Positions 8,335-37,000 of a DNA stretch of 64,000 bases are shown here, piece after piece. Origin of the DNA: Pyrobaculum sp. GTDB taxonomy: Archaea > Thermoproteota > Thermoprotei > Thermoproteales > Thermoproteaceae. The notes under the pieces were generated by a model, which saw nothing but the letters and a program-made list of their open reading frames with translations, did not search any database and was not told the DNA's origin. A program made the translations under genes and the position numbers. Location of the stretch: positions 1 through 64,000 of the forward strand of contig JBKBOT010000007.1 of NCBI GenBank assembly GCA_046293555.1, given 5' to 3'. How positions within the stretch are numbered: the stretch's first letter is position 1; every line of letters starts with the position of its first letter.

Positions 8335-8541
8335 TCAGCATGGGCTTTTCTTCACCCTTCTGGAGACCCTTAGCTCTTCACATCTGCCTCCCCTCTGGAG
8401 ATATAAAAGAATTTTTCCAAATATATGTAGATTGCCGATAAGCAACATGACAAGCCCCACTACGGCGAGCTCGACCTCGTTGCCCACAACCCCCATTAAC
8501 GTCACCACAGCCCCGTATATAGTCAACATGTAGATAAACAC
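8335..8541 (-). CDS. Small two-TM membrane protein
   Basis: Two hydrophobic helices; downstream of nfeD. Confidence 0.55.
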   Translation of the reverse strand: MFIYMLTIYGAVVTLMGVVGNEVELAVVGLVMLLIGNLHIFGKILLYLQRGGRCEELRVSRRVKKSPC

Positions 8542-8576: not shown

Positions 8577-9863
8577 TTAACATCTCACCGGCTCTACTTT
8601 AAGCACGTCGCCCTCCATCTCCACCACACGGACTCTACACCCATTTTTTATGGGGGTTATAGACACGGCCTTCCAGTACTCTCCCAACACTATCACAAAA
8701 CCCGGCTTGTCCGGCCCGATGTCCTCCACAGCCACGCCCTCTACGCCTCTTAACGTGGTTAACATCTCCGATGGGGGCCTCTGTCTATGTACCCCAACGA
8801 CCTTATATATCACCAACGCCAAAAAGCCCAGGAGGATGGCTATGTTGATATAAAGCCCCAGCTGGATAAGCCACCAGCTCTCTATATGTATAAGCTCCCC
8901 ACTAAAGATGTTTGCCGGATATGTGGAGATAAATCCAGCAATTAGCAAGACGGCCCCCACGGCGGCTACAACACCGTGTGTGGCAGCCCCAGTCAAGATC
9001 TCCACCATTATCAACACGGCCCCCAGTATTATGAGGGCCACGCCCAACCACACCGTGGGCAATATGGAAAACATGGAGATCACCAGGATCAATATAGCCG
9101 CGGCGGCCACCGCCGGGTGGCCTGTGAAGAGTGCCGCCAGCAGGAGGATAAAGGCTAGTAACGACAACAGGCTTGAAACCACCGGGTCGCTAATCCACGC
9201 CTGTAGGGCTTCTGTAAACGTGGGCGGCACCCGCCGGAAGCTCTTGCCGGCAACTACCAGCACCTCCCTCTGGCCTCGGAGCAATATGACGCTGCCGTTA
9301 ATCTTCTTCACCAGGTCGTCGGGATCTGACGCAATTAGGTCTACTACCCCATATCTGAGAGCTTGTTCTGCGTCTAGATTCACGTTTTGAGTTATACAAA
9401 GCCTGGCAAAAGTCCCGTTGCGTCCATAGGACTTAGCCACGGCCTCCAGATAGCCCACCAGCGCGTTTAAAACCTTAGACTCGTTGATGGGCGTCTCCCC
9501 GGCGACGGGCTGACAGGAGCCAATAACCGTATGTGGCGCCATGGCCGCAATGTGTGTAGACATGAGGACATAGGTGCCTGCAGACCAGGCGTAGCTGTAG
9601 TCCGGGTAGACATAGCCGATAACCGGCGCGGGGGAGTTGCCAATTTCTTTCATTATCTGTAGTGTGGCGTCTGCCAGGCCGCCTGGAGTAGACAGCAGTA
9701 AGATCACCGCGCCTCTCTCCTGTTCTGCCATTGAGATAGCTCTCTGAACTTGCGACAGAGTGTAAGGCCCTATTACCCCATCTATCTCCACGACGTAAAA
9801 AAGGTGGGCCACATATGCCTGAGATAAGGCGACAGCCAGCAGTAGGAGGAGGCTACTTCTCAT
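8577..9863 (-). CDS. NfeD / stomatin operon partner membrane serine protease
   Basis: Signal peptide, STPGG, AWSAG, MAPHTVIG, TM bundle, C-terminal GEYWKA OB domain. Confidence 0.93.
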   Translation of the reverse strand: MRSSLLLLLAVALSQAYVAHLFYVVEIDGVIGPYTLSQVQRAISMAEQERGAVILLLSTPGGLADATLQIMKEIGNSPAPVIGYVYPDYSYAWSAGTYVLMSTHIAAMAPHTVIGSCQPVAGETPINESKVLNALVGYLEAVAKSYGRNGTFARLCITQNVNLDAEQALRYGVVDLIASDPDDLVKKINGSVILLRGQREVLVVAGKSFRRVPPTFTEALQAWISDPVVSSLLSLLAFILLLAALFTGHPAVAAAAILILVISMFSILPTVWLGVALIILGAVLIMVEILTGAATHGVVAAVGAVLLIAGFISTYPANIFSGELIHIESWWLIQLGLYINIAILLGFLALVIYKVVGVHRQRPPSEMLTTLRGVEGVAVEDIGPDKPGFVIVLGEYWKAVSITPIKNGCRVRVVEMEGDVLKVEPVRC

Positions 9864-10647
9864 CTTGTTGTCTTTTCGTGAGGGCTAGCGGCAGCGCCAC
9901 GTATTCAAAGGTTGGCGGCGTCACGATTATTAGGTTACGTTCTCTAGCGATTTCTATCAAGGCGTCTATCATTCTCAGCTGAACTGCAGTGGGGTTTTGG
10001 GAATAACGCGCGGCGGCGTCGAGATAAATCTTGCTGGCTTCGTATTCCGCAGAGGCCAGCGTGATTTTTGCACGTTTTACCCTCTCGGCCTCCGCCTGGC
10101 TGGCAATAGCCCTGAGTAAGACCTCTGGAAGTTTTATGTCTTTAATGGCCACCGCCGTGACCTTAACGCCCCAGGGGGTTACGTGTTCGTCCACAATAGA
10201 GGCGATCTTTTTTGCGATCTCGTCTCTATGTGTCAACACTGTATCTAAATCCACCATGCCTATGACGTCACGTAAAGTAGAAGAGGCGTAGATCGCCACT
10301 GCAGGCACGTGGCTTTTTACAGTTAACGCGGTCTTTAAGGCGTCAACTACCCGGAGGTAAATAGCGGCATCTACAGTTACTTCTACGTTATCTTTTGTTA
10401 AAGTCCTCTGTGCGGGCACGTCTACCACCTCTACTCTCAGATCGTATATTACTATCCGGTCTATGATGGGAATTATGAAAACTAGCCCGGGGCCTACGAC
10501 GCCCACCACGCGGCCTAGCCTAAACTTGACAGCTCTCTGATATTCAGGAATTATACGGATGGCAGAAGAGAGTATAGCCACAAGTATAACTAACGCAAAG
10601 AGAATTAACAGCCCGAAGGCCATCTGTTCCACAACCTGAAGTAACAT
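9853..10647 (-). CDS. SPFH/band 7 stomatin-like protein
   Basis: EYQRAVKFRLGR, GPGLVFIIP, TKDNV, PWGVKV, QAEAER. Confidence 0.95.
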   Translation of the reverse strand: MLLQVVEQMAFGLLILFALVILVAILSSAIRIIPEYQRAVKFRLGRVVGVVGPGLVFIIPIIDRIVIYDLRVEVVDVPAQRTLTKDNVEVTVDAAIYLRVVDALKTALTVKSHVPAVAIYASSTLRDVIGMVDLDTVLTHRDEIAKKIASIVDEHVTPWGVKVTAVAIKDIKLPEVLLRAIASQAEAERVKRAKITLASAEYEASKIYLDAAARYSQNPTAVQLRMIDALIEIARERNLIIVTPPTFEYVALPLALTKRQQDEK

Positions 10648-10687
10648 GATTTAAGATATGTGTGTATATATAAACTTCAGAATCTAC

Positions 10688-10743
10688 CGTATGAGGTGAC
10701 GTGGGGACGGGCTGACTGTGATGAAAAATCCGCGCGGCCGATC
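10688..10743 (+). ncRNA. Box C/D guide sRNA candidate
   Basis: C ATGAGGT 10691, D' CTGA 10712, C' GTGATGA 10718, D CCGA 10738; TATATA at 10665. Confidence 0.7.
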
Positions 10744-10792
10744 AGCCGCGAGAAGTCTCTTCACCACTCTGACAGTCCTGGAGACATCATTT
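10740..10792 (-). ncRNA. Box C/D guide sRNA candidate
   Basis: Minus strand reads ATGATGT-ctccaggactgt-CAGA-gtg-GTGAAGA-gacttctcgcgg-CTGA, with two 12-nt guides. Confidence 0.8.
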
Positions 10793-10815
10793 TTATATAA
10801 CATGTAGTTATCTCC

Positions 10816-11133
10816 ATGTTTAAAATTGACGAGATTTTAAAAAGGCTAGAGGAGATAGATAGAGTTATCAAAACAATTAATGAGACAAAAACAGAAGTAT
10901 CATTACATATAGATAATATTTCAAATAAATATAAAGAAGAGGTTATTAAAAAAATAGAGGAAATTATAAATCAAGCTGTTGAAAAATATAAAATAGAAAT
11001 TCTTGAAAACACCAAGAGAGAAATCGAAAAAATACATAGAGACGCCGAGGAAAAGATAGGGGATATCCTCGAGAAATACCAACAGAGAAAACAAGAGCTT
11101 GTCGACAGGGCGTTAGAGCTATTTAACATATGA
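10816..11133 (+). CDS. A-type ATP synthase peripheral stalk subunit H-like coiled-coil protein
   Basis: E/K-rich helical protein of 105 aa, coupled (ATGA) to subunit C. Confidence 0.7.
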   Translation: MFKIDEILKRLEEIDRVIKTINETKTEVSLHIDNISNKYKEEVIKKIEEIINQAVEKYKIEILENTKREIEKIHRDAEEKIGDILEKYQQRKQELVDRALELFNI

Positions 11134-12158
11134 CCTTTGTGGCCAAGAGGCCTTCTCTAGGGCCACGCGTCAGGGGGTTACGGATCAAAGAGCTGCCAAG
11201 AGACAAGCTTATCGCAATAGCCTACGCCAACACTCTAGACGAGCTTCTTAACACGCTAAAAACAGCATATGGGATAACGTTAGACAGACTCACAAAGGAG
11301 AATATTGGAGAGCTACGGGGTGAGCTCATAAAGATATATCTAGACAAAATCCGCTCCATATATCTGGGTTCAGACAAAGACGCAAAAGAGGTGGTATTGT
11401 CTTCCCTCAAGTTTTTTGAGTATGAGAACATACGTAATATAGCCATAGCCATAAGGGCTGGAAAAAGCCCAGATGACTTCGTCTTCTGGGCGCCGCTGGA
11501 ATTTACACGTAGGCGTCACATTGTGGCCAGCCTACTTGGCGTAAAAAACCTAGAGGACATGAGAGAGAGGTTGAGACAGTTAAAACACCCAGCCCACAGG
11601 GCCTTTGAGCTCGCGGCAAGATATGGGGAGGATAAACTCAGCATATTTGTCGACAGACAGTGGATTGAAGACTTCTCTAAAGCCACCATAGCCAAGAAAG
11701 ACAGGTCATTCCAAATGTTTACAGAAGACCTCAAGGAGTATTTCAACGTGTTAATTACCTTAAGGTCGCGGCTATGGGGTCTCTCTGAAGAAGTAGGCGA
11801 GCTTGTTGTGGGGAAGCCCACCCCGATGGTAACCTCAGCGGCTAAAGACCCCCCCGCGCGGTTTTTAGAAAACGCAACCTCTGTGCCTTGGGGCAGAGTC
11901 TTGGTCGACATTGTGGCAGAAATGCCGACGTTAGAAAACATAGCTATAGCCATGGATAATATATATCCCGCATATGTGAGAAAGCTGGCTGATACATACA
12001 TGGTAAAATTTTCAGAATTTTCGCTAGGCGCCCTGGCTGCCCGCCTGGAGTACATGCGGGCAGAAGTCATGGCGATAATTAGGGCGGCCTCACTAATAGC
12101 AGAGGGGGTGTCTCTAGAAAAAAGAAGAAAAATTTTCGAGGCGCTGGCTAGAGCTTAG
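11130..12158 (+). CDS. atpC: A/V-type ATP synthase subunit C (V0 d-like)
   Basis: PRVRGL, FEYENIRNI, LEYMRAEVMAI; ATP synthase gene context. Confidence 0.8.
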   Translation: MTFVAKRPSLGPRVRGLRIKELPRDKLIAIAYANTLDELLNTLKTAYGITLDRLTKENIGELRGELIKIYLDKIRSIYLGSDKDAKEVVLSSLKFFEYENIRNIAIAIRAGKSPDDFVFWAPLEFTRRRHIVASLLGVKNLEDMRERLRQLKHPAHRAFELAARYGEDKLSIFVDRQWIEDFSKATIAKKDRSFQMFTEDLKEYFNVLITLRSRLWGLSEEVGELVVGKPTPMVTSAAKDPPARFLENATSVPWGRVLVDIVAEMPTLENIAIAMDNIYPAYVRKLADTYMVKFSEFSLGALAARLEYMRAEVMAIIRAASLIAEGVSLEKRRKIFEALARA

Positions 12159-36947: not shown

Positions 36948-37000
36948 ACGTGATGTGATGCACCTCGCCAGACTGTATGACGAAAGGCGGCACGCTGAAT
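36948..37000 (+). ncRNA. Box C/D guide sRNA candidate
   Basis: C GTGATGT 36950, D' CAGA 36969, C' ATGACGA 36977, D CTGA 36995; TTTATAAA upstream. Confidence 0.8.

Follow-up and report, generated by a model that had tools for sequence, protein, structure and literature searches.

Putative sR105 and sR58 orthologs form a convergent box C/D sRNA gene pair with abutting D boxes in a Pyrobaculum genome

Introduction

Can two small RNA genes that end against each other, with no nucleotide between them, both be conventional guide genes, and if so, is their contact kept by selection or simply tolerated? Archaeal box C/D sRNAs are recognized by a C box (RUGAUGA) and a D box (CUGA), which together form a kink-turn. 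The RNA assembles with L7Ae, Nop5, and fibrillarin and methylates the nucleotide paired to the fifth guide base upstream of the D or D' box, and it is the RNP, not a dedicated terminator, that determines the 3' end of the mature RNA. We analysed a 64,000-nt stretch of a Pyrobaculum genome (positions 1 to 64,000 of contig JBKBOT010000007.1; hereafter the window), in which a preliminary description had proposed two box C/D sRNAs packed tail to tail with abutting D boxes, as well as a third unit overprinted on the pair. Here we ask what these genes are, what they may guide, and how their junction arose.

Results and Discussion

Reading the sequence again, we found all box positions and all four guide strings of the preliminary description to be correct. 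The two genes are convergent, the D box of the plus-strand gene ends at 10741 and that of the minus-strand gene at 10742, and with 0 nt between them this is the tightest non-overlapping packing possible. Together they occupy the 168-nt gap between two divergent protein genes. The features of the locus are as follows.

9853-10647, minus strand: SPFH/Band 7 gene (Pfam PF01145, E 3.7e-39)
10665-10674, unstranded: AT-rich TATA-like element read from the sequence, candidate sR105 promoter
10691-10741, plus strand: putative sR105 ortholog, box C/D sRNA of 51 nt (from the sequence, a 13-sequence alignment, and published box calls)
10691-10697, plus strand: sR105 C box, ATGAGGT
10698-10711, plus strand: sR105 D' guide, 14 nt
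10712-10715, plus strand: sR105 D' box, CTGA
10716-10717, plus strand: sR105 D'-C' loop, 2 nt
10718-10724, plus strand: sR105 C' box, GTGATGA
10725-10737, plus strand: sR105 D guide, 13 nt
10738-10741, plus strand: sR105 D box, CCGA
10738-10745, unstranded: D box/D box junction, CCGA followed by TCAG, spacer 0 nt
10742-10790, minus strand: putative sR58 ortholog, box C/D sRNA of 49 nt (from the sequence, an 11-sequence alignment, and published rows)
10790-10784, minus strand: sR58 C box, ATGATGT
10783-10772, minus strand: sR58 D' guide, 12 nt
10771-10768, minus strand: sR58 D' box, CAGA
10767-10765, minus strand: sR58 D'-C' loop, 3 nt
10764-10758, minus strand: sR58 C' box, GTGAAGA
10757-10746, minus strand: sR58 D guide, 12 nt
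10745-10742, minus strand: sR58 D box, CTGA
10816-11133, plus strand: 105-aa ORF, coiled-coil-like, with the same start in relatives
10819-10827, minus strand: TATA-like TTTAAAATT read from the sequence, candidate sR58 promoter, in the same layout in relatives
11130-12158: V/A-type ATPase subunit C gene (PF01992, E 2.6e-15)

Both genes have terminal C and D boxes able to form a kink-turn (AUGAUGU/CUGA in sR58 and the deviant AUGAGGU/CCGA in sR105), and both carry internal D' and C' boxes and guide spacers close to 12 nt in length (14 and 13 nt in sR105, 12 and 12 nt in sR58). In the window's sR105, C-box position 5 and D-box position 2 form a G:C pair, and across 23 orthologs the combination is G:C in 13, G:U in five, C:A in two, and A:U, U:U, and U:C in one each, the single U:C case being an ambiguous box call. 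The usual U.U of the kink-turn is thus mostly swapped for a Watson-Crick or wobble pair in this family. The two positions covary across the 23 orthologs. The C box of the window's sR58 (AUGAUGU) differs from the UUGAUGA found in all 10 other g1 (Pyrobaculum-genus) orthologs parsed, and the g3 orthologs carry GUGAUGA or AUGAUGA.

A strict composite C/D pattern, run over the 1.75-Mb genome, gave 20 raw (18 unique) candidates, compared with 0, 1, and 1 when the genome was locally shuffled three times. The 18 include both genes, which form the sole convergent pair no more than 60 nt apart by this pattern, which catches part of the sRNA set, so that other pairs are possible. The pair is more than chance. 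Two further candidates of the strict pattern lie in the window, at 8335-8381 on the minus strand, just downstream of an NfeD-like gene (8577-9863, minus strand), and at 36950-36998 on the plus strand. Poor conservation of the boxes, which the preliminary description had named as evidence that would count against the pair, was not what we observed: in alignments of 13 sR105 and 11 sR58 sequences, the boxes and guide cores are invariant, and the variation falls in the loops and in the 2 nt adjoining the D boxes. In a BLAST-type search, 17 of 40 relatives contained the region, 14 of them from the same genus, with conserved boxes and guides in both genes.

Comparison with published Pyrobaculum sRNA families, the check that the preliminary description had proposed, was the right one. 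In Lui et al. 2018 (PMC6009581), a family is defined by its guide sequences and by synteny, and the guide and box strings of our two genes match six published sR105 and six published sR58 genes (Supp. Table S1 of that study). The plus-strand gene shares with sR105 the atypical C box AUGAGGU, the D box CCGA, the D' guide core GGGGACGGG, and the D guide core UCCGCGC, these cores being identical to those of the six published members (PMC6009581), and, like its counterparts in relatives, it lies between the Band 7 gene and its neighbor sR58. Likewise, the minus-strand gene has the sR58 guide cores CCAGGACUG and CUUCUCGC in identical form (PMC6009581), the same site before the ATPase gene block, and the same divergent orientation to the 105-aa ORF as in relatives. 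Our own sequence models, R1 for sR105 and R2 for sR58, score 57.4 bits (E 1.5e-15) and 58.1 bits on the respective window genes, each of which was in the training alignment of its model. Because the R1 and R2 matches in six genomes coincide with the coordinates published for six species (PMC6009581), orthology to the two families is fixed, and with it the genus. On guide sequence and synteny, we therefore assign the plus-strand gene to sR105 and the minus-strand gene to sR58, both known families with known predicted targets. In two of the six published species, the coordinates of sR105 and sR58 already touch. Neither name occurs in the main text of PMC6009581 or in the available text of PMC3388794, and we found no read counts for either sRNA singly in these sources, expression being reported at the level of family building.

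Rfam offers little guidance at this locus, as there were no matches at gathering scores in the whole window. A permissive search returned sub-threshold matches to four other Pyrobaculum C/D families, sR35, sR9, sR23, and sR33 (for sR35 at the sR58 locus, 27.7 bits against a gathering score of 60). Because these matches are driven by the box motifs, they do not give a family, and we rejected all four as identities. It can be held against the sR105 assignment that its boxes are deviant (C box AUGAGGU, D box CCGA) and that it has no Rfam family at gathering score.

To assign targets, we scanned the guides against rRNA and tRNA. No SSU or LSU rRNA was matched in the window genome (a 145-contig assembly, 96% complete by marker genes), and since its own rRNA is unassembled, the 23S rRNAs of five relatives were used, and the rRNA sites given here are sites in those genes. 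The tRNAs were the 43 of less than 200 nt predicted in the window genome by aragorn with introns allowed (48 calls, of which five over 200 nt were dropped as false). The preliminary description had recognized no guide targets and had suggested such a scan; when it was done, all four guides paired over 9-11 bp, placing a target nucleotide across from the fifth base before D or D'. The four guides thus have plausible targets, three of which are the published ones.

For sR58, the D' guide pairs with 23S rRNA through 10 Watson-Crick pairs and one G.U, and the D guide through 10 Watson-Crick pairs, in all five relatives. The two sites are separated by 21 nt and were published as U2159 and G2180 (PMC6009581), and sR58 is predicted to be a dual guide for both nucleotides. 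The two bases adjoining each D box of sR58 are unpaired with the target and are the most variable guide positions. The D' guide of sR105 forms 11 Watson-Crick pairs with the genome's own tRNA-Ser(CGA) and also matches Ser(UGA) and Ser(GGA), and the U that it would target corresponds to the published tRNA-Ser U44 (PMC6009581). The same guide forms nine Watson-Crick pairs and one G.U with 23S rRNA in four of the five relatives, at the site published as U1574 (PMC6009581, Supp. Tables S1 and S4), with no match at threshold in the fifth (G008, L025). Numbered from where the model match begins, our 23S positions exceed the published U2159, G2180, and U1574 by 4. The sR105 D' guide is thus predicted to direct 2'-O-methylation of tRNA-Ser U44 and to pair with 23S U1574 too.

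The D guide of sR105 is the one that departs from the published set. In the window genome, which lies outside the published six, it reads AAAAUCCGCGCGG, and guide positions 2-10 match tRNA-Val(CAC) through eight Watson-Crick pairs and one G.U, with G39 opposite the fifth guide base; by this match it is predicted to direct methylation of G39. A tRNA-Val target was predicted in two of the six published species and none in the other four (PMC6009581), but the conserved core UCCGCGC matches this anticodon-stem site in each of these species, falling below the threshold of that study in the other four. Points against this assignment are the lack of a published target in those four species and the length of the match, only 9 bp including the G.U. 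Genes for fibrillarin, Nop5, and L7Ae are present in the window genome, and from their family membership, the sR105 and sR58 RNAs would each be expected to assemble with these three proteins and to direct methylation of the nucleotide that pairs with the fifth guide base, counted upstream from D or D'.

To follow the junction through the lineage, we ran the models built from 13 sR105 and 11 sR58 sequences over 62 genomes of the order and read the junctions from the DNA. Both genes occur in 22 of the 62 genomes, with the following spacers.

0 nt (12 genomes), window's genus: G000 (window), G006, G007, G008, G013, G017
0 nt, continued, sister genus: G019, G021, G022, G023, G060, G061
1 nt: G058
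6 nt: G002, G005
7 nt: G009
136 nt: G016
387 nt: G012
2.7-3.3 kb apart on the same strand, separated by inversions: G004, G014, G015, G024

As the 0-nt junction is found in six genomes of each of two genera, the arrangement predates the split between them. In other families of the order, R2 has matches in 16 of 31 genomes and R1 in two of 31, weakly and on other contigs, and sR58-like genes of other families and genera have no adjoining sR105 and, where read, have T-rich sequence after them. The simplest history that these distributions suggest has sR58 as the older gene, with sR105 coming to lie against it before the two genera diverged. Four genomes (G010, G059, G018, and G020) have sR58-like or partial matches only, and the models found neither gene in G003 and G011. 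In G001 (L015), of the window's genus, sR105 is kept before the same 105-aa ORF and no sR58 is recognizable at the locus or elsewhere in the genome, so that 23S U2159 and G2180 may be without a guide there.

At least seven breaks of the junction have followed, namely inserts of 1, 6, 7, 136, and 387 nt and two inversions. Six-frame comparison showed that the first inversion, in G015, G004, and G014 (L038-L040), turned a block corresponding to window positions 10742 to about 14030, which carries sR58 and the 105-aa ORF together with the ATPase C gene and two others. The second, in G024 (L037) of the sister genus, involved a shorter block, from 10742 to about 13213. In both inversions one breakpoint falls precisely where the two D boxes meet, and their far ends differ (about 14030 and about 13213); in different genera, they are apparently independent events. 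Of the 387-nt insert of G012 (L010 1114-1500), a 26-29-nt piece recurs at four other places in that genome at 93-97% identity. The insert as a whole is not repeated, which led us to discard the idea of a repeated element, and it contains only short ORFs of at most 70 aa.

Because both genes were kept each time that the junction opened, the contact appears to be tolerated and not required. We favor neutral compaction, in which deletions would strip the spacer down to the D boxes and no further, making 0 nt the limit of the process. Retention in 12 of the 22 genomes could alternatively reflect selection, with the junction held by functional coupling of the two genes, either as a mutual 3'-end context in which polymerase collision or an RNP roadblock replaces a terminator, or through readthrough antisense that links the amounts of a tRNA guide and an rRNA guide. 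That exactly 0 nt is preserved in two genera, with flanking spacers that differ in length, speaks for such coupling. Against it stand the repeated losses described above, the retention of sR105 without sR58 in G001, and the fact that a deletion bias would reach the same 0-nt end state without selection.

The candidate sR105 promoter at 10665-10674 is placed roughly halfway from the sR105 C box to the start codon (10647) of the divergent Band 7 gene. The candidate sR58 promoter, TTTAAAATT, falls within the opening codons of the 105-aa ORF and precedes the sR58 C box by about 30 nt, and a second TATA-like run at 10792-10799, adjoining that C box, faces the ORF. On the plus strand, the first T-run after the sR105 D box is at 10790-10794, and with none before it, the primary transcript of sR105 probably runs across the whole of sR58 in antisense. 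On the minus strand, a T5 run (plus-strand positions 10724-10728) follows the sR58 D box after 17 nt (starting 18 nt downstream), where relatives have T3 only. Trimming back to the RNP would then define where the mature RNAs end. The antisense claim of the preliminary description holds by geometry, as a transcript that runs on beyond either D box copies the other gene in antisense.

The late T-run makes readthrough across sR58 plausible, and the T-rich sequence directly after partnerless sR58-like genes in other genera is also in keeping with a functional contact. A published parallel points the same way: the convergent sR113a and sR08 genes of P. aerophilum, with a 1-bp spacer, were called 'highly unusual', with possible transcriptional interference (PMC6009581). 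We rejected a junction hairpin that would serve as a conserved terminator or processing signal. Among 14 junctions folded (G009 was not in this set), z-scores ranged from -2.5 to +0.4 and reached -1.9 or lower only in G000, G017, and G007, and structure at 90 C was found in three of the 14 only (G000, G017, and G021), at -0.3 to -1.8 kcal/mol. Weighing these points with the losses of the junction, we consider it unlikely that the 0-nt contact is selectively kept by functional coupling.

The junction sequence itself, CYGATCAG, is palindromic, and in some species the palindrome reaches 14-18 nt. The site may be fragile, or these breakpoints may simply be the only ones that could be survived. A fragile palindrome, if real, would explain why two inversions and several insertions all fell at the same point. 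We regard as unlikely the fuller account in which selection keeps the junction through mutual termination and antisense coupling of the tRNA and 23S guides, with the palindrome acting as a fragile site.

The 105-aa ORF beside the pair has a 5' part (10850-11050) of 17-29% G+C, compared with 52% for the genome. Its product is K/E/I-rich with a sub-threshold Pfam match and, judging by where its gene sits, ahead of that for the ATPase C subunit, could be a small stalk subunit of an A-type ATPase.

The preliminary description also read plus-strand readthrough as a third, overprinted C/D unit (10718-10772, plus strand), and saw the locus as a possible birthplace of sRNAs. The motifs of this unit are literally present in the window genome, namely GTGATGA at 10718, CTGA at 10769-10772, and a 5-bp complement between GACTG at 10714-10718 and CAGTC at 10773-10777. 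They do not hold up across relatives, however. None of the 16 other sR58 orthologs parsed by regular expression (five of 22 were unparsed) has CTGA at the homologous place, leaving the window's gene alone with it, and this CTGA arises because the sR58 D' box CAGA is preceded by U. The GACTG arm falls in the variable D'-C' loop of sR105 and is otherwise seen only in G009, and the stretch from 10742 to 10768 lacks a C'-like box, so that neither a conserved D box and stem nor a set of internal boxes was found. sR105 shows no sequence similarity to the antisense of sR58. We therefore read the third unit as a chance by-product, and consider a third sRNA made by readthrough, with the locus as a site of sRNA birth, to be very improbable.

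Convergent C/D sRNA genes with nearly no spacer have been described before in these archaea, in sR113a/sR08 and in sR34/sR40, the latter 16-78 nt apart in three species (PMC6009581). The sR105/sR58 pair resembles both, and differs from sR113a/sR08, which belongs to other families and was reported in one species, in having a spacer of 0 nt that is common to 12 genomes of two genera. In Pyrobaculum, C/D sRNA genes that run toward protein genes and meet them at their 3' ends have also been reported, together with sRNA-sized antisense reads (Bernick et al. 2012, PMC3388794). In those cases the partner is an mRNA, in contrast to the present locus, where it is another guide RNA.

Conclusions

Taken together, we think it very likely that the locus holds two independent, conventional box C/D guide genes, convergent orthologs of sR105 and sR58, whose 0-nt junction is a tolerated compaction and whose apparent third unit is due to chance. 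The modestly new elements are the instance in the window genome, the tRNA-Val match of its D guide, and a 0-nt packing that is ancestral to two genera and yet repeatedly broken. For annotation, the gain is two correctly typed guide RNA genes with predicted targets at a place where Rfam finds none. The natural series of spacers (0, 1, 6, 7, 136, and 387 nt, and inverted) lends itself directly to asking whether convergent transcription affects sRNA 3'-end formation or abundance. The survival of a 0-nt convergent pair in two genera suggests that C/D sRNA genes of archaea can do without their own terminator sequence downstream, and that a packing described in print as 'highly unusual' (PMC6009581) can stay stable over long times.
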